The translations under genes and the position numbers were made by a program. Positions 3,867 through 57,175 of a stretch of 64,000 bases of DNA are shown in pieces. The notes beneath the pieces were generated by a model that saw only the letters and a list, made by a program, of their open reading frames with translations, was not told the DNA's origin and made no database searches. This DNA is from Alphaproteobacteria bacterium (GTDB taxonomy: Bacteria; Pseudomonadota; Alphaproteobacteria; UBA828). Numbering within the stretch: position 1 is the stretch's first letter; each line of letters opens with the position of its first letter. The DNA is taken from assembly GCA_963422645.2 (NCBI GenBank), contig CAXXVO010000010.1:26303-90302 (forward strand), in the 5' to 3' direction.

Positions 3867-5401
3867 CGGTGTCGCACTGGCACGAAGACCTCGCCGCCCG
3901 TAACGAGGCCTTCTGCTGCCTGAAGGAGCTTCTCGAGCCATCATCCCTCGCAACCACTGTCGTCGTTGCCGTCCGGGAATGGGGGCAGGGGCTGCTGCGA
4001 TCAGCCACCGCGCTCGCCCGGGAAAATGCCGCACTCGAGCAGGAGAACGCGGCCCTGCGCGAGCGCATCGCCGAACTCGAGCGCAGCGCGGCCCTCAACA
4101 GCACCACAAGCAGCAAGCCCCCCGCCAGCGACGGGCTCAAGAAGAAAAGCGGAGCCCAGAGGCGCACCCAAAGCCAGCGCGGAAAGTCCGGCGGGCCCAG
4201 TGGCGGCCAGCCCGGCCACAAGGGAACCACCCTCGCGCGGAGCGACAGCCCGGACCGTGTCGTCGATCACCACCCCTCCACCTGTTCCGGCTGTGGCGTC
4301 GAGCTCTCGGACGCCGACCGGCAAGGCGCGCCCGCCTGTCGGCAGGTCTTCGACGTACCCGAGCCGCAGCCTCTCGAGGTCACCGAACACCGCGCCCATC
4401 GCTGCCTCTGCGGCGCATGCGGCACGCTGACACGAGCCGCCTTCCCGCCGGGCGTCACCGCCCCGGTCCAGTACGGCCCTCGCATCACCGCTTGGGTGAG
4501 TTACCTGCTGTACGCCCAGTTCGTGCCCGAGAAGCGTCTGGCCGAACTCATGAGCGACATCTTCGCGGTGTCCATCTCCACTGCCACGATCGCCGCCATG
4601 GGCCGGCGCACAGCGCAGCGCTTCGAGGGCTTCCTCGACCATGTCGCCGATCTGATCCGCACGCAGGCGCCGGTCAAGCACCTCGACGAGACCGGCCTGC
4701 GTATCGCCGCCCGTACCCGCTGGCTCCATGTGCTGTGCACCCCGTTGCTCACCGTCCTGCGCATCGGCGAGGGACGCGGCGATGTCGAAAAGAACCTGAA
4801 AGGCATCCTCGTCCACGACGACTTCGCCCCCTACTTCACCATCAAGGGCGTCCGCCACGGCGCCTGCAACGCACATCACCTGCGCGAACTCCAGGCCCTG
4901 ATCGACATCGAGAAGGAGGAATGGGCGGCGAGCATGCACCGCCTGCTTCAGCGCGCGCGCAGGGCCGCCCGCTTCGCCCGTGAGAAAGACCGTCAAGTCC
5001 CCGCCTCCCTGGTGGCCCGCATCTCAAGGGCATGGGACCGTATCCTCGAAGAAGCCATCGCCTTCCATGAGGCCCAACCGCCGCTCCAGATCGCAAAGCG
5101 AGGGCGAAAGAAACGCCGCATCGGCCACAACCTCGCGCGCCGCCTTCAAAAGCATAAGGAGGGCTGCCTGCGCTTCCTCACCGACCTGCGCACGCCGTTC
5201 ACGAATAACGAGGCGGAGCGTGACATCCGTATGAACAAAGTGCATGAGAAGATCTCAGGCGGCTTCCGCTCCCTGCAAGGCGCCTGCAACTTCGCCGGAA
5301 TGCGCAGCGTCATCGTCACCGCTCGAAAGCAAGGCTGGAACATCCTGCAAATCCTGGCGCACCCGGAACCGATGCAGCTGATCCCTATACTGCGCTCCTG
5401 A
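3863..5401 (+). CDS. IS66 family transposase
   Basis: Coiled coil, SSKPP, GGQPGHKG, zinc finger, HLDETG, CNAHHLREL and FTNNEAERDIR. The GTG start overlaps the MTase stop (GTGA). Confidence 0.95.
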   Translation: MTVSHWHEDLAARNEAFCCLKELLEPSSLATTVVVAVREWGQGLLRSATALARENAALEQENAALRERIAELERSAALNSTTSSKPPASDGLKKKSGAQRRTQSQRGKSGGPSGGQPGHKGTTLARSDSPDRVVDHHPSTCSGCGVELSDADRQGAPACRQVFDVPEPQPLEVTEHRAHRCLCGACGTLTRAAFPPGVTAPVQYGPRITAWVSYLLYAQFVPEKRLAELMSDIFAVSISTATIAAMGRRTAQRFEGFLDHVADLIRTQAPVKHLDETGLRIAARTRWLHVLCTPLLTVLRIGEGRGDVEKNLKGILVHDDFAPYFTIKGVRHGACNAHHLRELQALIDIEKEEWAASMHRLLQRARRAARFAREKDRQVPASLVARISRAWDRILEEAIAFHEAQPPLQIAKRGRKKRRIGHNLARRLQKHKEGCLRFLTDLRTPFTNNEAERDIRMNKVHEKISGGFRSLQGACNFAGMRSVIVTARKQGWNILQILAHPEPMQLIPILRS

Positions 5402-20403: not shown

Positions 20404-21435
20404 ATGAAGTTCGGTCTGCTCTTCGCTCACCAGGTGCCGCCGGAGAGCGGCATTTCGAGCCAGGAAACCTACCGGGACATGCTGCGCTGCCTGCCGTGGG
20501 CAGAAGAGCTCGGCTACGTCTCCGCCTTCCAGTGCTCCCACCACATCCAGAAGGACGGTTTTTGCCCGGGCCCGCTGGTGGCGATGGCCGGCGCCGCGGC
20601 GGTCACCCAGCGGATGCGGATCGGCACGGCGGTTCTGCTGGTGCCGCTCTACGCCCCGCTCAAGCTCGCCGAGGATGTCGCGGTGATCGACAACCTCTCG
20701 GGCGGGCGCTTCGTCTTCGGCGTGGCGCCGGGGTACGTCACGCAGGAGTTCGCGGCCCACGGCGTGCCGCGGGAGGAACGCGTCGGCCGCTTTGAGGAAG
20801 CGCTCGATCTGATGGTCCAGGCCTGGACCGGGGAGCCTTTCTCCTTCGAGGGGCGCTACTACCGGGTGCCGGAGGGGCGGGTGACGCCGAAGCCGGTGCA
20901 AAGCCCGCATCCGCCCATCTGGTACGGGGTCTCTGCGCCCGGCTCTCTGCGCCGGGCGGCGGCGCGGCGCTCAGTGCAGATCATGTCGCCGCGCCACGGG
21001 CTCGCCGAGCTCGAAGCCCACTTCGAGCCATACGAAGCGGCTGCCGAGGCCGCCGGCTGGGAGATTCCGGAGCGGCCGATCATCCGCCAGGTGTTCGTCG
21101 CGCCGACCATGGCGGAGGCGGAGGCGAAGGCCGCACCTGCGGTGGACTACCTCTACCGCGAGCTCTACGGCGCTGCGTCGGCCGCCGGCGACCGGGTGCT
21201 GCGGCGGGACGACGGCAGCGTGATCGACGACCCCACCGAGGTCGCGTTCACGACCTTCAAGGACCGCTACATCATCGGCGATCCGGACTTCGCGATCCGC
21301 AGCATTCGGGACTATCAGGCGGCGGTGAACCCGAGCGAGATGATCTGCTGGATGCACATGCCGGGCGTTGCCGGCGCCGACGCAAAGGCCTCGGTCGAGC
21401 TCTTCGCCAGCGAAGTGATGCCGCACTTCCGATAG
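20404..21435 (+). CDS. LLM-class flavin-dependent oxidoreductase
   Basis: AEELGY, RIGTAVL, LAEDVAVIDNLSGGR and PKPVQSPHPPIW. Confidence 0.92.
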   Translation: MKFGLLFAHQVPPESGISSQETYRDMLRCLPWAEELGYVSAFQCSHHIQKDGFCPGPLVAMAGAAAVTQRMRIGTAVLLVPLYAPLKLAEDVAVIDNLSGGRFVFGVAPGYVTQEFAAHGVPREERVGRFEEALDLMVQAWTGEPFSFEGRYYRVPEGRVTPKPVQSPHPPIWYGVSAPGSLRRAAARRSVQIMSPRHGLAELEAHFEPYEAAAEAAGWEIPERPIIRQVFVAPTMAEAEAKAAPAVDYLYRELYGAASAAGDRVLRRDDGSVIDDPTEVAFTTFKDRYIIGDPDFAIRSIRDYQAAVNPSEMICWMHMPGVAGADAKASVELFASEVMPHFR

Positions 21436-21542
21436 ATCCGCGTTTCCGAACAATCAGATAATGTGGTCACACTGTGGTCTTGCACCCGGTCTCCCTGCGG
21501 CGTAGGGTGGGAAGGTCGCTCAGTTTCCAGGAAGCATCGGCT

Positions 21543-21854
21543 ATGGAATACGCCTTGCGCGATGCCAAGGCTCACCTTTCCAAGCTCATCAGGGACGCTC
21601 AGAACGGCAAACGTGTGGTCATCACCAAGCACGGCGAGCCGGTTGTCGAACTCGTGCGCTGCGCGGGGCGGGGCGGAATCGACTTCGACAAGCTGGAAGC
21701 GGACCGCCGGCGCCTTGGGATCGAGGACGCCTCCCCGGAAGAAGCCGAGGCGATGATCGCCGCCTTTCAAGATCCGGCGCTGAGCCGCCGGGTGCTCGGA
21801 CTCGAAGACAAAACAGTCATGGTCCCCGCGGTTCTGAGCCACCCCGTGGCATGA
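21543..21854 (+). CDS. Phd/YefM family antitoxin; native C-terminus replaced by IS110 read-through
   Basis: MEYALRDAKAHLSKLI...VVITKHGEPVVEL. The reconstructed native end is ...LEDKE* using the TAG at 30658-30660. Confidence 0.88.
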   Translation: MEYALRDAKAHLSKLIRDAQNGKRVVITKHGEPVVELVRCAGRGGIDFDKLEADRRRLGIEDASPEEAEAMIAAFQDPALSRRVLGLEDKTVMVPAVLSHPVA

Positions 21855-21920
21855 AACAGGAGCGGTTCGGCTGACGTTTTCCTTGCGCTTGCACCCATTT
21901 GCCGTGTCAGGATGGGTATT

Positions 21921-22103
21921 GGCGGAGGTGGGGACGTGTGAGCGTCGTTATATCGGTGACGTAGTTCCCGATGACAAAACTGCTTCCGGCGGCCGGCTCC
22001 GCACCCCGTATTGTACCCGGCCCGTGGCCGTGGACGCGCGGCAAATTGCACCGCACCCGCTCGTCGGATGCGTGTTCTTCCGACCGCTGTCCCCGCCTCC
22101 ACC
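21921..22103 (+). ncRNA. Candidate IS110 bridge RNA (repeated in each copy)
   Basis: Lies in the ~350-bp non-coding left end. Closing stem GGCGGAGGTGGGGAC / GTCCCCGCCTCCACC; internal segments match target (GATGACAAA) and donor (CGCGGCAAA). Confidence 0.65.
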
Positions 22104-22165
22104 GTGGCGATGCCACGGCGTGATCGTACGCCGCCGTGGCGAGAGCGCAAATGAGGAGGAAGGCG

Positions 22166-23416
22166 ATGAAGACGGAAGGCTTGCACGTCGTCCGGCCGCG
22201 CGCGGCGGGTCTGGACGTGCACAAGATGGAGATCACCGCGACGGTTCGCCTCTGTGAGGGCGAGGGTGAGCCGGTGGTGGAGACGCGCTGCTTCGGCACG
22301 CTGCCGAGCGGTCTGGAGGAGATGGTCGCGTGGCTGACCGGTCACGGCGTCGAGGCTGCGGTGATGGAAGGGACCGGGGTCTACTGGCAGGCGCCCTTCG
22401 CGGCCCTGGAGGCGGCCGGGCTCGAGGCGATCCTGGTGCATGCGCGTCAGGTGAAGCAGTTGAAGGGGCGCAAGACCGACGTGGCGGACAGCGTGTGGCT
22501 GGCCTGCGTGTGCCAGTTCGGGCTCTGCACGCCTTCCCACGTTCCGCCTGAGCCGTTCCGGGAGCTGCGCGCACTGAGCCGCCAGCGCCGCGTCCTGGTC
22601 AGGCAGCGCTCCGCCGTGCGCAACCGCGTGCAGAAGATCATCGACCGCGCCGGTGCGCGCATCGGCGGCATCCTCTCCGACGTCTTCGGCGTCAACGGCC
22701 GGAAGATCCTCGACGGCCTGGCGCAGGGGACGGCGCGCGAGGTCATCCTCGCCTCGCTCACCAGCCACGTTGCGAACAAGCTGGAGGGGCTCGGCGAGGC
22801 GCTCACCCTGAGCCTGGGCGACAACGACCGCTTCATGCTCAACGACCTGCTGGAGGAGCATGACGCGCTTGAGGCGCGCATCGCGTCCTACACCAGGAAG
22901 ATCGACGGGCAGATGACACCGTGGGAGGAGCAGCTCCGTCTGCTGACCACCATCCCCGGCATCGACCGCACCGCCGCCTCGACCATCCTCATCGAGATCG
23001 GCCCCGACATCGGCGTGTTCGCCTCCAAGGAGCACTTCGCCGCCTGGGCCGGGCTCTGCCCCGGCAACAACGAGAGCGGGGGCAAGCGCCGCAACGCACG
23101 CACCCGCATGGGCTCCAAGACCCTGCGCGCCTGCCTCGTCGAGTGTGCCCACGGCGCGGCCCGAACCAAGGGGTGCCAGTTCGAGGCTCATCACCGCGCC
23201 CTCGCCGCCCGGCGCGGCTACAAGCGCGCCATCGTCGCCGGCGCTCACAAGATGCTGCGCATCATCTATGTGGTGCTCAAGACCGGCAGGCCCTACTACG
23301 ACCGCACGGCCGACTACGACGCTCTGATGGTCAAGCGCAACGCTCCTCGGTGGATCCGCATGCTCCGCCGCTACGGCTACATCGAGCCCGTAGGCGCGGA
23401 ACTCAAGGCCGCCTGA
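22166..23416 (+). CDS. IS110 family recombinase, copy 1
   Basis: RuvC-like DEDD motifs GLDVHK, MEGTG and KTDVAD; Tnp-domain serine in NESGGK; RBS GAGGAGG. Confidence 0.95.
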   Translation: MKTEGLHVVRPRAAGLDVHKMEITATVRLCEGEGEPVVETRCFGTLPSGLEEMVAWLTGHGVEAAVMEGTGVYWQAPFAALEAAGLEAILVHARQVKQLKGRKTDVADSVWLACVCQFGLCTPSHVPPEPFRELRALSRQRRVLVRQRSAVRNRVQKIIDRAGARIGGILSDVFGVNGRKILDGLAQGTAREVILASLTSHVANKLEGLGEALTLSLGDNDRFMLNDLLEEHDALEARIASYTRKIDGQMTPWEEQLRLLTTIPGIDRTAASTILIEIGPDIGVFASKEHFAAWAGLCPGNNESGGKRRNARTRMGSKTLRACLVECAHGAARTKGCQFEAHHRALAARRGYKRAIVAGAHKMLRIIYVVLKTGRPYYDRTADYDALMVKRNAPRWIRMLRRYGYIEPVGAELKAA

Positions 23417-23933
23417 GCGGCCCGCATCTCGTCAGCCGGCTACGCGGGACCGCTTCGGACCACATCGGGGAAGTCCACCGCTCGTCTCCGCCGCGCCGAC
23501 CCTGGCGGTCTCAGCCAACGCCGTGACCTCGGGGTTGGAGCGTCACCGCGCGTCCCTCGCCAGAATCTGTTTCACGGCAAACAGTCATGGTCCCCGCGGT
23601 TCTGAGCCACCCCGTGGCATGAAACAGGAGCGGTTCGGCTGACGTTTTCCTTGCGCTTGCACCCATTTGCCGTGTCAGGATGGGTATTGGCGGAGGTGGG
23701 GACGTGTGAGCGTCGTTATATCGGTGACGTAGTTCCCGATGACAAAACTGCTTCCGGCGGCCGGCTCCGCACCCCGTATTGTACCCGGCCCGTGGCCGTG
23801 GACGCGCGGCAAATTGCACCGCACCCGCTCGTCGGATGCGTGTTCTTCCGACCGCTGTCCCCGCCTCCACCGTGGCGATGCCACGGCGTGATCGTACGCC
23901 GCCGTGGCGAGAGCGCAAATGAGGAGGAAGGCG

Positions 23934-25184
23934 ATGAAGACGGAAGGCTTGCACGTCGTCCGGCCGCGCGCGGCGGGTCTGGACGTGCACAAGATGGAGA
24001 TCACCGCGACGGTTCGCCTCTGTGAGGGCGAGGGTGAGCCGGTGGTGGAGACGCGCTGCTTCGGCACGCTGCCGAGCGGTCTGGAGGAGATGGTCGCGTG
24101 GCTGACCGGTCACGGCGTCGAGGCTGCGGTGATGGAAGGGACCGGGGTCTACTGGCAGGCGCCCTTCGCGGCCCTGGAGGCGGCCGGGCTCGAGGCGATC
24201 CTGGTGCATGCGCGTCAGGTGAAGCAGTTGAAGGGGCGCAAGACCGACGTGGCGGACAGCGTGTGGCTGGCCTGCGTGTGCCAGTTCGGGCTCTGCACGC
24301 CTTCCCACGTTCCGCCTGAGCCGTTCCGGGAGCTGCGCGCACTGAGCCGCCAGCGCCGCGTCCTGGTCAGGCAGCGCTCCGCCGTGCGCAACCGCGTGCA
24401 GAAGATCATCGACCGCGCCGGTGCGCGCATCGGCGGCATCCTCTCCGACGTCTTCGGCGTCAACGGCCGGAAGATCCTCGACGGCCTGGCGCAGGGGACG
24501 GCGCGCGAGGTCATCCTCGCCTCGCTCACCAGCCACGTTGCGAACAAGCTGGAGGGGCTCGGCGAGGCGCTCACCCTGAGCCTGGGCGACAACGACCGCT
24601 TCATGCTCAACGACCTGCTGGAGGAGCATGACGCGCTTGAGGCGCGCATCGCGTCCTACACCAGGAAGATCGACGGGCAGATGACACCGTGGGAGGAGCA
24701 GCTCCGTCTGCTGACCACCATCCCCGGCATCGACCGCACCGCCGCCTCGACCATCCTCATCGAGATCGGCCCCGACATCGGCGTGTTCGCCTCCAAGGAG
24801 CACTTCGCCGCCTGGGCCGGGCTCTGCCCCGGCAACAACGAGAGCGGGGGCAAGCGCCGCAACGCACGCACCCGCATGGGCTCCAAGACCCTGCGCGCCT
24901 GCCTCGTCGAGTGTGCCCACGGCGCGGCCCGAACCAAGGGGTGCCAGTTCGAGGCTCATCACCGCGCCCTCGCCGCCCGGCGCGGCTACAAGCGCGCCAT
25001 CGTCGCCGGCGCTCACAAGATGCTGCGCATCATCTATGTGGTGCTCAAGACCGGCAGGCCCTACTACGACCGCACGGCCGACTACGACGCTCTGATGGTC
25101 AAGCGCAACGCTCCTCGGTGGATCCGCATGCTCCGCCGCTACGGCTACATCGAGCCCGTAGGCGCGGAACTCAAGGCCGCCTGA
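23934..25184 (+). CDS. IS110 family recombinase, copy 2
   Basis: Translation identical to copy 1. Confidence 0.95.
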   Translation: MKTEGLHVVRPRAAGLDVHKMEITATVRLCEGEGEPVVETRCFGTLPSGLEEMVAWLTGHGVEAAVMEGTGVYWQAPFAALEAAGLEAILVHARQVKQLKGRKTDVADSVWLACVCQFGLCTPSHVPPEPFRELRALSRQRRVLVRQRSAVRNRVQKIIDRAGARIGGILSDVFGVNGRKILDGLAQGTAREVILASLTSHVANKLEGLGEALTLSLGDNDRFMLNDLLEEHDALEARIASYTRKIDGQMTPWEEQLRLLTTIPGIDRTAASTILIEIGPDIGVFASKEHFAAWAGLCPGNNESGGKRRNARTRMGSKTLRACLVECAHGAARTKGCQFEAHHRALAARRGYKRAIVAGAHKMLRIIYVVLKTGRPYYDRTADYDALMVKRNAPRWIRMLRRYGYIEPVGAELKAA

Positions 25185-25701
25185 GCGGCCCGCATCTCGT
25201 CAGCCGGCTACGCGGGACCGCTTCGGACCACATCGGGGAAGTCCACCGCTCGTCTCCGCCGCGCCGACCCTGGCGGTCTCAGCCAACGCCGTGACCTCGG
25301 GGTTGGAGCGTCACCGCGCGTCCCTCGCCAGAATCTGTTTCACGGCAAACAGTCATGGTCCCCGCGGTTCTGAGCCACCCCGTGGCATGAAACAGGAGCG
25401 GTTCGGCTGACGTTTTCCTTGCGCTTGCACCCATTTGCCGTGTCAGGATGGGTATTGGCGGAGGTGGGGACGTGTGAGCGTCGTTATATCGGTGACGTAG
25501 TTCCCGATGACAAAACTGCTTCCGGCGGCCGGCTCCGCACCCCGTATTGTACCCGGCCCGTGGCCGTGGACGCGCGGCAAATTGCACCGCACCCGCTCGT
25601 CGGATGCGTGTTCTTCCGACCGCTGTCCCCGCCTCCACCGTGGCGATGCCACGGCGTGATCGTACGCCGCCGTGGCGAGAGCGCAAATGAGGAGGAAGGC
25701 G

Positions 25702-26952
25702 ATGAAGACGGAAGGCTTGCACGTCGTCCGGCCGCGCGCGGCGGGTCTGGACGTGCACAAGATGGAGATCACCGCGACGGTTCGCCTCTGTGAGGGCGAG
25801 GGTGAGCCGGTGGTGGAGACGCGCTGCTTCGGCACGCTGCCGAGCGGTCTGGAGGAGATGGTCGCGTGGCTGACCGGTCACGGCGTCGAGGCTGCGGTGA
25901 TGGAAGGGACCGGGGTCTACTGGCAGGCGCCCTTCGCGGCCCTGGAGGCGGCCGGGCTCGAGGCGATCCTGGTGCATGCGCGTCAGGTGAAGCAGTTGAA
26001 GGGGCGCAAGACCGACGTGGCGGACAGCGTGTGGCTGGCCTGCGTGTGCCAGTTCGGGCTCTGCACGCCTTCCCACGTTCCGCCTGAGCCGTTCCGGGAG
26101 CTGCGCGCACTGAGCCGCCAGCGCCGCGTCCTGGTCAGGCAGCGCTCCGCCGTGCGCAACCGCGTGCAGAAGATCATCGACCGCGCCGGTGCGCGCATCG
26201 GCGGCATCCTCTCCGACGTCTTCGGCGTCAACGGCCGGAAGATCCTCGACGGCCTGGCGCAGGGGACGGCGCGCGAGGTCATCCTCGCCTCGCTCACCAG
26301 CCACGTTGCGAACAAGCTGGAGGGGCTCGGCGAGGCGCTCACCCTGAGCCTGGGCGACAACGACCGCTTCATGCTCAACGACCTGCTGGAGGAGCATGAC
26401 GCGCTTGAGGCGCGCATCGCGTCCTACACCAGGAAGATCGACGGGCAGATGACACCGTGGGAGGAGCAGCTCCGTCTGCTGACCACCATCCCCGGCATCG
26501 ACCGCACCGCCGCCTCGACCATCCTCATCGAGATCGGCCCCGACATCGGCGTGTTCGCCTCCAAGGAGCACTTCGCCGCCTGGGCCGGGCTCTGCCCCGG
26601 CAACAACGAGAGCGGGGGCAAGCGCCGCAACGCACGCACCCGCATGGGCTCCAAGACCCTGCGCGCCTGCCTCGTCGAGTGTGCCCACGGCGCGGCCCGA
26701 ACCAAGGGGTGCCAGTTCGAGGCTCATCACCGCGCCCTCGCCGCCCGGCGCGGCTACAAGCGCGCCATCGTCGCCGGCGCTCACAAGATGCTGCGCATCA
26801 TCTATGTGGTGCTCAAGACCGGCAGGCCCTACTACGACCGCACGGCCGACTACGACGCTCTGATGGTCAAGCGCAACGCTCCTCGGTGGATCCGCATGCT
26901 CCGCCGCTACGGCTACATCGAGCCCGTAGGCGCGGAACTCAAGGCCGCCTGA
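25702..26952 (+). CDS. IS110 family recombinase, copy 3
   Basis: Translation identical to copy 1. Confidence 0.95.
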   Translation: MKTEGLHVVRPRAAGLDVHKMEITATVRLCEGEGEPVVETRCFGTLPSGLEEMVAWLTGHGVEAAVMEGTGVYWQAPFAALEAAGLEAILVHARQVKQLKGRKTDVADSVWLACVCQFGLCTPSHVPPEPFRELRALSRQRRVLVRQRSAVRNRVQKIIDRAGARIGGILSDVFGVNGRKILDGLAQGTAREVILASLTSHVANKLEGLGEALTLSLGDNDRFMLNDLLEEHDALEARIASYTRKIDGQMTPWEEQLRLLTTIPGIDRTAASTILIEIGPDIGVFASKEHFAAWAGLCPGNNESGGKRRNARTRMGSKTLRACLVECAHGAARTKGCQFEAHHRALAARRGYKRAIVAGAHKMLRIIYVVLKTGRPYYDRTADYDALMVKRNAPRWIRMLRRYGYIEPVGAELKAA

Positions 26953-27470
26953 GCGGCCCGCATCTCGTCAGCCGGCTACGCGGGACCGCTTCGGACCACA
27001 TCGGGGAAGTCCACCGCTCGTCTCCGCCGCGCCGACCCTGGCGGTCTCAGCCAACGCCGTGACCTCGGGGTTGGAGCGTCACCGCGCGTCCCTCGCCAGA
27101 ATCTGTTTCACGGCAAAACAGTCATGGTCCCCGCGGTTCTGAGCCACCCCGTGGCATGAAACAGGAGCGGTTCGGCTGACGTTTTCCTTGCGCTTGCACC
27201 CATTTGCCGTGTCAGGATGGGTATTGGCGGAGGTGGGGACGTGTGAGCGTCGTTATATCGGTGACGTAGTTCCCGATGACAAAACTGCTTCCGGCGGCCG
27301 GCTCCGCACCCCGTATTGTACCCGGCCCGTGGCCGTGGACGCGCGGCAAATTGCACCGCACCCGCTCGTCGGATGCGTGTTCTTCCGACCGCTGTCCCCG
27401 CCTCCACCGTGGCGATGCCACGGCGTGATCGTACGCCGCCGTGGCGAGAGCGCAAATGAGGAGGAAGGCG

Positions 27471-28721
27471 ATGAAGACGGAAGGCTTGCACGTCGTCCGG
27501 CCGCGCGCGGCGGGTCTGGACGTGCACAAGATGGAGATCACCGCGACGGTTCGCCTCTGTGAGGGCGAGGGTGAGCCGGTGGTGGAGACGCGCTGCTTCG
27601 GCACGCTGCCGAGCGGTCTGGAGGAGATGGTCGCGTGGCTGACCGGTCACGGCGTCGAGGCTGCGGTGATGGAAGGGACCGGGGTCTACTGGCAGGCGCC
27701 CTTCGCGGCCCTGGAGGCGGCCGGGCTCGAGGCGATCCTGGTGCATGCGCGTCAGGTGAAGCAGTTGAAGGGGCGCAAGACCGACGTGGCGGACAGCGTG
27801 TGGCTGGCCTGCGTGTGCCAGTTCGGGCTCTGCACGCCTTCCCACGTTCCGCCTGAGCCGTTCCGGGAGCTGCGCGCACTGAGCCGCCAGCGCCGCGTCC
27901 TGGTCAGGCAGCGCTCCGCCGTGCGCAACCGCGTGCAGAAGATCATCGACCGCGCCGGTGCGCGCATCGGCGGCATCCTCTCCGACGTCTTCGGCGTCAA
28001 CGGCCGGAAGATCCTCGACGGCCTGGCGCAGGGGACGGCGCGCGAGGTCATCCTCGCCTCGCTCACCAGCCACGTTGCGAACAAGCTGGAGGGGCTCGGC
28101 GAGGCGCTCACCCTGAGCCTGGGCGACAACGACCGCTTCATGCTCAACGACCTGCTGGAGGAGCATGACGCGCTTGAGGCGCGCATCGCGTCCTACACCA
28201 GGAAGATCGACGGGCAGATGACACCGTGGGAGGAGCAGCTCCGTCTGCTGACCACCATCCCCGGCATCGACCGCACCGCCGCCTCGACCATCCTCATCGA
28301 GATCGGCCCCGACATCGGCGTGTTCGCCTCCAAGGAGCACTTCGCCGCCTGGGCCGGGCTCTGCCCCGGCAACAACGAGAGCGGGGGCAAGCGCCGCAAC
28401 GCACGCACCCGCATGGGCTCCAAGACCCTGCGCGCCTGCCTCGTCGAGTGTGCCCACGGCGCGGCCCGAACCAAGGGGTGCCAGTTCGAGGCTCATCACC
28501 GCGCCCTCGCCGCCCGGCGCGGCTACAAGCGCGCCATCGTCGCCGGCGCTCACAAGATGCTGCGCATCATCTATGTGGTGCTCAAGACCGGCAGGCCCTA
28601 CTACGACCGCACGGCCGACTACGACGCTCTGATGGTCAAGCGCAACGCTCCTCGGTGGATCCGCATGCTCCGCCGCTACGGCTACATCGAGCCCGTAGGC
28701 GCGGAACTCAAGGCCGCCTGA
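27471..28721 (+). CDS. IS110 family recombinase, copy 4
   Basis: Translation identical to copy 1. Confidence 0.95.
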   Translation: MKTEGLHVVRPRAAGLDVHKMEITATVRLCEGEGEPVVETRCFGTLPSGLEEMVAWLTGHGVEAAVMEGTGVYWQAPFAALEAAGLEAILVHARQVKQLKGRKTDVADSVWLACVCQFGLCTPSHVPPEPFRELRALSRQRRVLVRQRSAVRNRVQKIIDRAGARIGGILSDVFGVNGRKILDGLAQGTAREVILASLTSHVANKLEGLGEALTLSLGDNDRFMLNDLLEEHDALEARIASYTRKIDGQMTPWEEQLRLLTTIPGIDRTAASTILIEIGPDIGVFASKEHFAAWAGLCPGNNESGGKRRNARTRMGSKTLRACLVECAHGAARTKGCQFEAHHRALAARRGYKRAIVAGAHKMLRIIYVVLKTGRPYYDRTADYDALMVKRNAPRWIRMLRRYGYIEPVGAELKAA

Positions 28722-29239
28722 GCGGCCCGCATCTCGTCAGCCGGCTACGCGGGACCGCTTCGGACCACATCGGGGAAGTCCACCGCTCGTCTCCGCCGCG
28801 CCGACCCTGGCGGTCTCAGCCAACGCCGTGACCTCGGGGTTGGAGCGTCACCGCGCGTCCCTCGCCAGAATCTGTTTCACGGCAAAACAGTCATGGTCCC
28901 CGCGGTTCTGAGCCACCCCGTGGCATGAAACAGGAGCGGTTCGGCTGACGTTTTCCTTGCGCTTGCACCCATTTGCCGTGTCAGGATGGGTATTGGCGGA
29001 GGTGGGGACGTGTGAGCGTCGTTATATCGGTGACGTAGTTCCCGATGACAAAACTGCTTCCGGCGGCCGGCTCCGCACCCCGTATTGTACCCGGCCCGTG
29101 GCCGTGGACGCGCGGCAAATTGCACCGCACCCGCTCGTCGGATGCGTGTTCTTCCGACCGCTGTCCCCGCCTCCACCGTGGCGATGCCACGGCGTGATCG
29201 TACGCCGCCGTGGCGAGAGCGCAAATGAGGAGGAAGGCG

Positions 29240-30490
29240 ATGAAGACGGAAGGCTTGCACGTCGTCCGGCCGCGCGCGGCGGGTCTGGACGTGCACAAGA
29301 TGGAGATCACCGCGACGGTTCGCCTCTGTGAGGGCGAGGGTGAGCCGGTGGTGGAGACGCGCTGCTTCGGCACGCTGCCGAGCGGTCTGGAGGAGATGGT
29401 CGCGTGGCTGACCGGTCACGGCGTCGAGGCTGCGGTGATGGAAGGGACCGGGGTCTACTGGCAGGCGCCCTTCGCGGCCCTGGAGGCGGCCGGGCTCGAG
29501 GCGATCCTGGTGCATGCGCGTCAGGTGAAGCAGTTGAAGGGGCGCAAGACCGACGTGGCGGACAGCGTGTGGCTGGCCTGCGTGTGCCAGTTCGGGCTCT
29601 GCACGCCTTCCCACGTTCCGCCTGAGCCGTTCCGGGAGCTGCGCGCACTGAGCCGCCAGCGCCGCGTCCTGGTCAGGCAGCGCTCCGCCGTGCGCAACCG
29701 CGTGCAGAAGATCATCGACCGCGCCGGTGCGCGCATCGGCGGCATCCTCTCCGACGTCTTCGGCGTCAACGGCCGGAAGATCCTCGACGGCCTGGCGCAG
29801 GGGACGGCGCGCGAGGTCATCCTCGCCTCGCTCACCAGCCACGTTGCGAACAAGCTGGAGGGGCTCGGCGAGGCGCTCACCCTGAGCCTGGGCGACAACG
29901 ACCGCTTCATGCTCAACGACCTGCTGGAGGAGCATGACGCGCTTGAGGCGCGCATCGCGTCCTACACCAGGAAGATCGACGGGCAGATGACACCGTGGGA
30001 GGAGCAGCTCCGTCTGCTGACCACCATCCCCGGCATCGACCGCACCGCCGCCTCGACCATCCTCATCGAGATCGGCCCCGACATCGGCGTGTTCGCCTCC
30101 AAGGAGCACTTCGCCGCCTGGGCCGGGCTCTGCCCCGGCAACAACGAGAGCGGGGGCAAGCGCCGCAACGCACGCACCCGCATGGGCTCCAAGACCCTGC
30201 GCGCCTGCCTCGTCGAGTGTGCCCACGGCGCGGCCCGAACCAAGGGGTGCCAGTTCGAGGCTCATCACCGCGCCCTCGCCGCCCGGCGCGGCTACAAGCG
30301 CGCCATCGTCGCCGGCGCTCACAAGATGCTGCGCATCATCTATGTGGTGCTCAAGACCGGCAGGCCCTACTACGACCGCACGGCCGACTACGACGCTCTG
30401 ATGGTCAAGCGCAACGCTCCTCGGTGGATCCGCATGCTCCGCCGCTACGGCTACATCGAGCCCGTAGGCGCGGAACTCAAGGCCGCCTGA
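29240..30490 (+). CDS. IS110 family recombinase, copy 5
   Basis: Translation identical to copy 1. Confidence 0.95.
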   Translation: MKTEGLHVVRPRAAGLDVHKMEITATVRLCEGEGEPVVETRCFGTLPSGLEEMVAWLTGHGVEAAVMEGTGVYWQAPFAALEAAGLEAILVHARQVKQLKGRKTDVADSVWLACVCQFGLCTPSHVPPEPFRELRALSRQRRVLVRQRSAVRNRVQKIIDRAGARIGGILSDVFGVNGRKILDGLAQGTAREVILASLTSHVANKLEGLGEALTLSLGDNDRFMLNDLLEEHDALEARIASYTRKIDGQMTPWEEQLRLLTTIPGIDRTAASTILIEIGPDIGVFASKEHFAAWAGLCPGNNESGGKRRNARTRMGSKTLRACLVECAHGAARTKGCQFEAHHRALAARRGYKRAIVAGAHKMLRIIYVVLKTGRPYYDRTADYDALMVKRNAPRWIRMLRRYGYIEPVGAELKAA

Positions 30491-30673
30491 GCGGCCCGCA
30501 TCTCGTCAGCCGGCTACGCGGGACCGCTTCGGACCACATCGGGGAAGTCCACCGCTCGTCTCCGCCGCGCCGACCCTGGCGGTCTCAGCCAACGCCGTGA
30601 CCTCGGGGTTGGAGCGTCACCGCGCGTCCCTCGCCAGAATCTGTTTCACGGCAAGAATAGCGGCCGAACACCG

Positions 30674-31069
30674 ATGCGCGTCCTTCTCGATACGTCATAC
30701 CTCTATAAGCTCATGCGGGCCCATGGTTGGATTTCCGAGCTGGAGCGTCGGTTCTTCGACACGTGGGAGGCACGGCTCTACGTGAGCGCCGTGTCGATCT
30801 GGGAGATGCGCCTCAAGTTTCGCGCCATACATCCGTCCGGCGAGCGCAAGAGCCCTTACGATCCGAACGATGTGGTCGCCGCGCTCGAACGGCAGGGGGT
30901 GACGTTCCTGACCATGACCGCGCGGCACGCCGCGTGCGATCTCGAGACCCCAATTCCTCACAAGGACCCGTTCGACGAGCTTCTTCTGGTGCAGGCCCAG
31001 GAAGAGGGGCTAAAACTCCTCACCGACGATCGTCGACTCATCGGGCACCCCCTGACCATCACGGCATAG
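30674..31069 (+). CDS. vapC: PIN-domain VapC family toxin
   Basis: [27 protein letters not shown] and LLTDD. Confidence 0.9.
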
Positions 31070-54537: not shown

Positions 54538-57175
54538 TCATCGAGACCGCAGGAGCATCTCGTTCCAGTCCTTGGCGTGTCGTGGGCGCAACCTTTTCAC
54601 CCTTGGATCGTTGAGCACGAGATGCTCGGCGGCAGTGTCGCCGGCGCTGTCTGCGTCGTAGGCACAGACGATGCGACGTGGCTTCCACTCCTTGATCCAG
54701 GGCGGGACCGAGCTGGCGATGCCGGCGGTTGAGGCGACGACGGCGCCGTTCTCGCGCGTCCCCTCGACGCGCAGGCTTCGTGCAGAGATGGCGTCGACGG
54801 CGCTCTCGGTGAGGATGACGAGGGCGGGCTGGTTTCGGTCGCAGTGGAGCCAGAAGCCGCCACGCGCCTTGCGCGATCCCGGGGCCATGCCCCTGAAGCG
54901 TTTGCCGTGAAACAGATTCTGGCGAGGGACGCGCGGTGACGCTCCAACCCCGAGGTCACGGCGTTGGCTGAGACCGCCAGGGTCGGCGCGGCGGAGACGA
55001 GCGGTGGACTTCCCCGATGTGGTCCGAAGCGGTCCCGCGTAGCCGGCTGACGAGATGCGGGCCGCTCAGGCGGCCTTGAGTTCCGCGCCTACGGGCTCGA
55101 TGTAGCCGTAGCGGCGGAGCATGCGGATCCACCGAGGAGCGTTGCGCTTGACCATCAGAGCGTCGTAGTCGGCCGTGCGGTCGTAGTAGGGCCTGCCGGT
55201 CTTGAGCACCACATAGATGATGCGCAGCATCTTGTGAGCGCCGGCGACGATGGCGCGCTTGTAGCCGCGCCGGGCGGCGAGGGCGCGGTGATGAGCCTCG
55301 AACTGGCACCCCTTGGTTCGGGCCGCGCCGTGGGCACACTCGACGAGGCAGGCGCGCAGGGTCTTGGAGCCCATGCGGGTGCGTGCGTTGCGGCGCTTGC
55401 CCCCGCTCTCGTTGTTGCCGGGGCAGAGCCCGGCCCAGGCGGCGAAGTGCTCCTTGGAGGCGAACACGCCGATGTCGGGGCCGATCTCGATGAGGATGGT
55501 CGAGGCGGCGGTGCGGTCGATGCCGGGGATGGTGGTCAGCAGACGGAGCTGCTCCTCCCACGGTGTCATCTGCCCGTCGATCTTCCTGGTGTAGGACGCG
55601 ATGCGCGCCTCAAGCGCGTCATGCTCCTCCAGCAGGTCGTTGAGCATGAAGCGGTCGTTGTCGCCCAGGCTCAGGGTGAGCGCCTCGCCGAGCCCCTCCA
55701 GCTTGTTCGCAACGTGGCTGGTGAGCGAGGCGAGGATGACCTCGCGCGCCGTCCCCTGCGCCAGGCCGTCGAGGATCTTCCGGCCGTTGACGCCGAAGAC
55801 GTCGGAGAGGATGCCGCCGATGCGCGCACCGGCGCGGTCGATGATCTTCTGCACGCGGTTGCGCACGGCGGAGCGCTGCCTGACCAGGACGCGGCGCTGG
55901 CGGCTCAGTGCGCGCAGCTCCCGGAACGGCTCAGGCGGAACGTGGGAAGGCGTGCAGAGCCCGAACTGGCACACGCAGGCCAGCCACACGCTGTCCGCCA
56001 CGTCGGTCTTGCGCCCCTTCAACTGCTTCACCTGACGCGCATGCACCAGGATCGCCTCGAGCCCGGCCGCCTCCAGGGCCGCGAAGGGCGCCTGCCAGTA
56101 GACCCCGGTCCCTTCCATCACCGCAGCCTCGACGCCGTGACCGGTCAGCCACGCGACCATCTCCTCCAGACCGCTCGGCAGCGTGCCGAAGCAGCGCGTC
56201 TCCACCACCGGCTCACCCTCGCCCTCACAGAGGCGAACCGTCGCGGTGATCTCCATCTTGTGCACGTCCAGACCCGCCGCGCGCGGCCGGACGACGTGCA
56301 AGCCTTCCGTCTTCATCGCCTTCCTCCTCATTTGCGCTCTCGCCACGGCGGCGTACGATCACGCCGTGGCATCGCCACGGTGGAGGCGGGGACAGCGGTC
56401 GGAAGAACACGCATCCGACGAGCGGGTGCGGTGCAATTTGCCGCGCGTCCACGGCCACGGGCCGGGTACAATACGGGGTGCGGAGCCGGCCGCCGGAAGC
56501 AGTTTTGTCATCGGGAACTACGTCACCGATATAACGACGCTCACACGTCCCCACCTCCGCCAATACCCATCCTGACACGGCAAATGGGTGCAAGCGCAAG
56601 GAAAACGTCAGCCGAACCGCTCCTGTTTCATGCCACGGGGTGGCTCAGAACCGCGGGGACCATGACTGTTTTGTTCCGGGCTGCGGCGCGGTGCCGAGGA
56701 TCTCGGCGCCGGTCGTGTGCCCGCTGGCGTTTCGGCAGATGAAGACGGCGTTGATCCTGTCATCGGCGTAGAGGAGGCCTCGGCCGTGGCAGGCTTCGAG
56801 CACGTCGGTGCCGATAGCGCGTTGGCGGATGAGGGCGTCCCGGACCCTGGGCCAGGCGCGGGGACTGGGCCTTGGCAGCCGCAGGCGTCGCGGGGCGGCT
56901 GGGATGGTGGTGATCTCCCTCCGCCCCTCATGGCTTCCGAGGAAGCGGAGGGCTTCCGGGAAGCGGCATCCCGTCGCATGGATGACGAGGTCGATGGCGC
57001 CACCCCCTCCCGTGCCGCGCAGGTGATCGAAGAACTTCTCGCCGTTGATGCTGATGACCGAGCCCCCGCGCTTGAAGCGCGCCCGGTCGGTCGGGTCTCT
57101 GCGGTAGCCGAGGGCGGCGGCGACCCGGTCGAGGGGGATGTTGCGGCAGGTGGCCAGGGGATCGCCGCCGCTCAT
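54538..57175 (-). pseudogene. DUF3991 + Toprim primase-like protein split by IS110 (57175-56670 and 54901-54538)
   Basis: GGGAIDLV, LYADDRINAVF, TESAVDAIS, AYDADSAG and KDWNE. Removing the IS restores the frame ...PGTKRFRGMAPGS. Confidence 0.8.
54904..56669 (-). mobile_element. Sixth copy of the 1766-bp IS110 element (recombinase CDS 55066-56316)
   Basis: Same ends and identical translation as the tandem copies. Confidence 0.95.

Follow-up and report, generated by a model that had tools for sequence, protein, structure and literature searches.

How does an insertion sequence (IS) come to stand five times in a row near the end of a single bacterial antitoxin gene, each copy letter for letter the same? 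The question is raised by a stretch of 64,000 nucleotides (hereafter the window) from an alphaproteobacterial genome assembly (GCA_963422645.2, contig CAXXVO010000010.1, positions 26,303 to 90,302 of the forward strand). Positions 21813-30652 of the window are five head-to-tail units of an IS110-family element, each 1766 bp long, with 0 differences among all five. On balance, we think that the element's own RNA-guided recombinase produced this array by working on the element's own junctions. That an array exists is better supported than that it has exactly five units.

The units lie on the forward strand at 21813..23578, 23581..25346, 25349..27114, 27118..28883 and 28887..30652, with transposase open reading frames (ORFs) at 22166-23416, 23934-25184, 25702-26952, 27471-28721 and 29240-30490, respectively. 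The spacers between them read, from left to right, AA (23579..23580, a run of three A's if the first base of unit 2 is included), AA (25347..25348), AAA (27115..27117, a run of four) and AAA (28884..28886); AA also stands outside the array at 21811-21812 and 30653-30654. Each unit is composed of a 353-nt non-coding left end, an ORF of 416 amino acids (aa), and a 162-nt right end. A preliminary description of this DNA, made from the sequence alone, had proposed the five 1766-bp units and a single further copy in a primase gene. Direct comparison confirmed both: the sixth copy, at 54904-56669 on the reverse strand, lies within a DUF3991/Toprim gene and has 0 differences to the units of the array. 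Tandem Repeats Finder reported no array at 21813-30652, because its longest period (maximum 500) is shorter than the unit of 1766 bp.

The element is an active insertion sequence of the IS110 (bridge-RNA) family. Its transposase ORF contains the N-terminal RuvC-like DEDD domain (DEDD_Tnp_IS110, PF01548, E 1.9e-23, residues 24-171 as numbered in a 426-aa ORF) and the C-terminal Tnp domain (Transposase_20, PF02371, E 4.6e-21), and it scores 270.3 bits, against a cutoff of 140, with the NCBIfam model NF033542 for the 'IS110 family RNA-guided transposase'. The protein aligns to the Protein Data Bank (PDB) recombinase chains of IS621 (E 6e-16) and ISCro4 (E 3e-15). Aligned with the IS621 chain (8wt6_A), the protein retains the E of 'EGTG' and both D's of 'KTDvaD'; the first D lies beyond the aligned stretch. 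The two proteins also share an ESG motif at the same place, and its serine is, judging from the motif, probably the S241 of the IS621 paper. The ends of the element, ACAGTC... and ...CACGGC, are not inverted repeats. The junction of right end to left end is present in the arrays and in read-derived unitigs; contigs cannot separate a circle from a tandem. An Rfam scan matched no bridge-RNA family; the only match, to the sRNA P10 within the ORF of the transposase, stayed below the gathering threshold (22 bits, threshold 37, E 0.034) and was taken as chance.

The window comes from contig C11 of a genome (G000; 5.9 Mb, 67% G+C, 23 contigs, 8.5% 'contamination') that contains 47 letter-identical copies of the unit at 36 loci (32 distinct sites). 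Thirty of these loci hold a single copy, and six hold head-to-tail arrays of 2, 2, 2, 3, 3, and 5 units; the arrays are located on contigs C5, C8 (two), C10, C11 (the array in the window), and C16. In all six, two or more complete modules on the same strand abut at a donor junction. The 11 internal junctions have the spacer AA in 6 cases and AAA in 5. AA borders all 36 loci on both sides, with one site reading ATA at the right. One host repeat of 2.2 kb, present in three copies, harbors 1, 2, and 3 units at the same position, and the surroundings of the three copies are otherwise different. At C16:23523-25256, 1.9 kb upstream of a three-unit array, lies one more copy, from which 20 bp are missing internally (unit positions 299-318).

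Uninterrupted paralogues were found for 4 of the 32 sites (1, 2, 23, and 66 copies), and at all four the number of A's in the empty site equals the left run plus the right run minus 2, i.e., the core is the dinucleotide AA. In the window, the array interrupts the ORF of a Phd/YefM antitoxin (in its present state 21474..21854, forward strand; Pfam PF02604, E 2.1e-10), which reads into the first copy of the element; its tail is now ...LEDKTVMVPAVLSHPVA, and in translation it was formerly ...LEDKE. The left copy of the core (21811..21812) ends the left target half GAAGACA-AA; the right copy opens the segment 30653..30660 and is followed by GAA TAG, the severed last codon of the antitoxin and its stop. 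The empty state of this site is seen in a contig of run X1, a 2015 run with the same species label from another strain, in which positions 21179-21812 are followed directly by the letters after 30654 (...GACAAA + GAATAG), with no element. For the Toprim site, 23 uninterrupted paralogues contain ACAAAACGC in an intact 310-aa ORF that continues through ...GGA ACA AAA CGC... The X1 contig and the Toprim paralogues together bear out the earlier proposal that an AA core restores an intact ORF at both sites. At the Toprim-gene site, 23 copies are empty and 3 are occupied, and one target-like site in the repeat with 66 empty copies carries a single insertion of the element.

The insertion into the antitoxin gene belongs to a very recent burst that yielded the 47 identical copies. 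The element of run X1 is ~2-3% divergent and is about as deep as its flank; in runs X18, X19, and X20, element unitigs are 36- to ~80-fold deeper than the flank. This contrast indicates that the burst was recent and specific to the strain. The depth of Logan unitigs carries the warning that it is not a copy number, and the ratios of element to flank were not used as a test; stretches with no cover listed for run X20 were likewise given no weight. Six of the 12 loose ends looked up in runs X19, X20, and X1 are absent from G000. Those of X19 and X20 that lie beside the element's termini (window positions 21806-21809 and 23582-23585) may represent insertion sites peculiar to the sister samples.

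The non-coding left end contains a candidate bridge RNA of 183 nt, closed by a basal stem and predicted with RNAalifold at 21921..22103 (forward strand) in unit 1; it has the same offset in every unit. Folded from 16 sequences, it has 45 predicted pairs, 12 of which show compensatory changes. When the left end was folded as a single sequence, the result did not exceed that for shuffled sequences (z -0.03). The left-end alignment comprised 16-20 relatives from G000, from genomes of the same genus, and from metagenome-assembled genomes (MAGs) labelled Thalassobaculaceae, Alphaproteobacteria, Binatia, Pseudomonadales, and Vicinamibacterales. Its frame is conserved as CCCG, a variable segment, AA, AC, and TG, and the variable segment tracks each element's own left flank. 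In the array's element, this segment is GATGACAAA, followed by AC (21970..21978 in unit 1, forward strand). Guides match the left flank of their own element at 4.0 of 7 positions (n = 20 loci), compared to 1.95 of 7 for the guides of other elements (n = 220). Because the guide covaries with the left flank over 12 guide variants, we regard GATGACAAA as the real left target guide, as had been suggested from the sequence of the window; natural sites match it only in the 3-5 bases that adjoin the core. In every lineage, the AC after the guide is identical to the element's own first two bases.

The assignment of the other guides was less successful. The heptamer GTATTGT (22008..22014, forward strand), earlier proposed as the right target guide, varies between lineages, and the natural right flanks do not match it: the first position in the right flank is A in 23, G in 8, and T in 1 of 32 natural sites, and GTATTGT would need T. 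We do not regard this candidate as demonstrated, since no match to right flanks, left flanks, or donor ends was found in any lineage. The argument that the right guide fits the left junction at 6/8, better than it fits the original site, failed on recounting, which gave 5/8 for both. A plausible left donor guide, judged by its likeness to the element's end, is GCGCGGCAA (22036..22044, forward strand), which is 7/9 identical to the right end plus core, TCACGGCAA. No right donor guide was found. An alphaproteobacterial MAG contains a 91%-related element in which the last 15 bases of the right end (...CACGGCAA) are tandemly duplicated (L039:5395-5430).

What the 32 natural sites have in common is only (G)ACA-AA-(A/G), and ACAAA[AG] occurs 987 times in G000. 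After insertion, the left junction reads (G)ACA-AA-AC; since it satisfies the natural-site consensus fully, a usable target survives the insertion. The antitoxin site matches the guide at 8/9 positions, the best of the 32 sites, and holds the longest array; the Toprim site matches at 5/9. Both counts agree with those given in the preliminary description, which had also proposed to compare tandem status with guide match across the genomic copies. This comparison finds arrays only at sites with a guide match of at least 6/9 (5/17 sites, compared to 0/15 below; Fisher one-sided p = 0.03, rank test p = 0.006), a post hoc result on 32 sites and 6 arrays, which are not independent events.

Guide match does not suffice, however. 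Every copy contains, in its guide-coding DNA, a site that matches at 9/9 positions and has AC behind it, and this DNA is interrupted in 0 of 47. The 11 tandem junctions at 36 left junctions, compared to 0/47 hits in the guide-coding DNA, give binomial probabilities of 1e-4 per junction and 0.007 per locus. Because the left junctions were used and the perfectly matched guide-coding DNA was left untouched, something specific to the element's end must help; possible helpers are the donor arm beside the left target, or a route that needs no target. The far greater use of the left junction (11 vs 0) fits a role of the donor arm. Of the earlier explanation, that each insertion regenerates a good target and the array therefore grows, the retention of the consensus at the left junction stands; the argument from the right guide, and guide match as a sufficient cause, do not.

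The number of A's in the internal junctions contains a further hint as to the partners. In all six arrays, the A-count of the leftmost internal spacer equals the A-run that opens the array's own right flank (6/6; chance ~1 in 20): three sites have a right flank that opens with AAAT and a leftmost spacer of AAA, and at the other three the flank opens with AAG or AAT and the spacer is AA. The agreement points to local recombination partners. It would follow if the first duplication joined a local right junction and a local left junction, with the crossover set beside the right target; such joining would be either the excision reaction between sister chromosomes or the prompt local re-use of a locally made circle. 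As register-slip schemes for the four-A junctions, the entry of a circle into a shifted left, shifted right, or donor junction was rejected, because none of the arrays has the outer junction or the one-A spacer that these schemes would leave. The preliminary description had allowed for a homopolymer error as the source of the three-A and four-A junctions. This is unlikely: given 0 differences over 47 x 1766 bases, random homopolymer errors at 5 of the 11 junctions are implausible, and the difference between the junctions looks real.

An independent example is found in a genome of the same genus assembled as one contig (G004). A different IS110 element, with a period of 1707, is present there in 46 full copies, and 11 of its loci are head-to-tail arrays of 2-3 units, in addition to complex loci. 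Some insertions in G004 are nested exactly at the AG core of the element's own guide-coding DNA (GATGTTA-AG, unit positions 134-142), in the arrangements [1-145][full][141-1707] and [full][141-1707] (loci L014, 2029-6273, and L079, L111, L112, L113, and L114). These nests show that such elements insert, directed by the guide, into look-alikes of the target that are borne by the element itself. G004 also contains mini elements of ~240 bp, in which the left end (1-144) is joined to the right end (1613-1707) with 84-97% identity to the full element. They stand alone, or with full copies abutting them or located at the guide core (L115, 2578-2812 and 6224-6457; L018, L117, L118, and L079).

Taken together, these data suggest the following course of events. 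The left target guide reads only ~4 bases of the left target plus the AA core, and in the RNA it runs on into AC, the element's own first two bases. Because the guide is short and continues with AC, the left junction, (G)ACA-AA-AC, would still resemble the full target after insertion. The right half of this junction would double as a donor arm known to the donor loop. As to the recombining partners and their order, we infer two routes: a free circle with a right end-AA-left end junction may recombine with the left junction, or the right junction on a sister chromosome may do so, which would be the excision reaction in trans. Either route, if repeated and possibly followed by unequal exchange through RecA, would produce 2 to 5 copies, and each internal junction would recreate a complete donor site in the chromosome. 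A more ambitious version appears possible but doubtful to us: that no target in the cell is better than an insert's left junction, that arrays grow by RNA-guided self-insertion or junction exchange, that the internal junctions served as circle-like launch pads behind the 47-copy burst, and that the three-A and four-A junctions record the side on which the crossover register was set.

Several observations weigh against construction of the array by the element's recombinase. The right target guide and the right donor guide are not assignable from the comparison of flanks and donor ends. With 0/47 copies hit in their guide-coding DNA, matching to the target loop does not by itself explain the arrays, and the statistics that connect arrays to guide match share the post hoc character and the non-independent arrays noted above. 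In the window array, two AAA junctions do not fit the simple reading of the leftmost-spacer rule, because only two A's open the right flank there; with either route, a register slip or the arrival of a four-A circle made at another locus would be required. Scanning for sigma-70 promoters and terminators over the junction returned 0 sites. Among related loci in other public genomes, only 1/57 has two adjacent copies, and that pair is not a clean tandem; arrays are therefore not general in the lineage. There is no read that spans the array, and the unit number of five is taken from the assembly alone. Finally, recombination by RecA gives the identical sequence.

This last alternative deserves the most attention, although we hold it to be rather unlikely. 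An excised double-stranded circle of the element could recombine with any resident copy through 1.77 kb of identity to form a tandem dimer, and unequal exchange between sister chromatids would then resize the array. This process yields exactly the observed sequence with both outer junctions unchanged, needs no target, and accounts for the guide-coding DNA being interrupted in 0/47 copies; the 47 identical copies would be a plentiful substrate, and two unequal exchanges could produce runs of like junctions such as AA, AA, AAA, AAA. However, RecA-mediated growth predicts independence from the flank, whereas the arrays occur only where the guide match reaches at least 6/9 (5/17 vs 0/15, p = 0.03), with the longest at the best-matching site. 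It also gives no reason for the agreement of the leftmost junction with the local right flank in 6/6 arrays, and recombination between homologous sequences cannot produce the precise insertions into the core of the guide-coding DNA that are observed in G004.

We consider it very unlikely that the array, or its number of units, is an artefact of assembly, be it a collapsed or expanded repeat or misplaced reads from circle concatemers. The runs were compared as Logan contigs, none of which spans the 8.8 kb, and the count of five rests on the assembly. An artefact would also suit the ratios of element depth to flank depth, which differ between the three runs (139/3.9, 743/15.1, and ~2400-3400/43.1), depth not being a copy number, and the state of the assembly (23 contigs, 8.5% 'contamination'). 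In contrast, unique flanks are present on both sides of all six arrays, none of the 47 copies stands at a contig end, and the left junction in the window is bridged by read-derived contigs of runs X18 and X19. The two types of junction occur in order, and a 52-letter unitig of X18 that joins right end to left end, carrying a one-letter indel as at the third internal junction of the window, has a depth of 19 compared to 3.9 for the flank; this ~five-fold ratio fits the five four-A junctions of the assembly, subject to the caveat on depth. The one-contig genome G004 contains eleven arrays of another IS110 element, and 437 such loci are reported in a preprint (bioRxiv 10.64898/2026.08.14.744561).

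The least probable explanation is integration in one step, in which circles concatenate (by rolling circle or circle by circle) and a pentamer enters the antitoxin site once: a single targeting event at the best-matching site (8/9) would suffice and mixed circles could give mixed three-A and four-A junctions, but there is no sign of multimeric circles here, the 1, 2, and 3 units at the same position in the copies of the 2.2-kb host repeat suit stepwise change better, and the leftmost-junction rule (6/6) would be unexpected.

Regarding the surroundings of the array, a gene for a PIN-domain (VapC-like) toxin is located at 30674..31069 on the forward strand (Pfam PF01850, E 2.1e-10). The array splits this toxin-antitoxin operon, and the antitoxin with its altered tail and the PIN toxin are now 8.8 kb apart. 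The genome is very rich in other repeats, for example the region at window position 5223 (C11:31525). MAGs labelled Binatia, Pseudomonadales, Vicinamibacterales, and Gammaproteobacteria also contain relatives of the transposase, with identities of 60-94% (L024, L042-L058, L063, and L065), and sponge metagenome runs contain a quarter or more of the flank's words. The distribution of the relatives, together with the sponge runs, suggests spread across phyla in one habitat.

The present element resembles IS621, for which bridge-RNA recombination was described (Durrant 2024, PMC11208160; Hiraizumi 2024, PMC11208158; see also PMC13626964), in several respects: it encodes a recombinase with DEDD and serine residues, a structured non-coding RNA lies 5' of the gene, a 2-nt core is found on both sides, inverted repeats are lacking, and the left target guide has the sequence of the left target plus the core. 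It differs from the IS621 of these accounts in that the core is AA rather than CT, the effective target comprises ~4 nt plus the core compared to 11 positions, no match of the natural right targets to any right guide was found, and the RNA has a long basal stem. In the excision complex, both loops are reported to bind the left half (PMC13626964). Half-match recombination by IS621 was described in vitro for excision and off-target insertion (bioRxiv 10.64898/2026.08.31.748434). The left junction in our element would be a substrate of the half-match type, a left target for one loop and a right donor for the other; the passages on IS621 in that preprint do not discuss tandem arrays.

Tandem arrangements of IS110 elements are not new. 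The preprint with the 437 loci describes tandem complete IS110 modules in natural genomes and, in the part that bears on them, ascribes these to the resident recombination system plus half-matches. The array in the window is likewise a head-to-tail multi-copy IS110 locus, and its genome may already be among the preprint's 437. Going beyond what that source relates, the left junction meets the entire empirical target consensus; our data also add a series within one genome (6 arrays and 30 single loci of one clone), the dimorphism of three-A and four-A junctions, and a replicate from the same genus. For CazIS110-1, tandem repeats of cargo were found in vivo in 3/96 colonies (bioRxiv 10.1101/2025.10.25.684509). 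Those repeats are presented as unstable by-products, all of which revert under induction, whereas the arrays reported here reach five units and are fixed in an assembled genome. In tandem dimers of IS30, neighbouring copies meet end to end, and the reactive junction so formed is the same as that of the circle (PMC9333248); the internal junctions of the present array may be comparable. IS30, as portrayed there, is unlike the present element in having a DDE transposase, inverted repeats, and a different chemistry. Our literature searches for natural head-to-tail IS110 arrays found no description earlier than the CazIS110-1 assay and the 437-locus preprint. Such arrays are thus already known, and the one in the window is a well-resolved new example with added mechanistic hints.

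Bridge recombinases are being engineered for genome insertion, and it therefore matters whether the junction beside an inserted cargo is open to a second insertion. The genome described here amounts to a natural experiment, with one clone of an element at 36 loci, six of them arrays, complemented by a relative in G004 that inserts into its own guide-coding DNA. For the present lineage, the statement, as it stands in print, that insertion does not regenerate the target is contradicted. Our findings suggest that elements or designs with short effective target recognition would stack their cargo head to tail, and the chromosomal donor sites placed by such an array could promote rearrangements.

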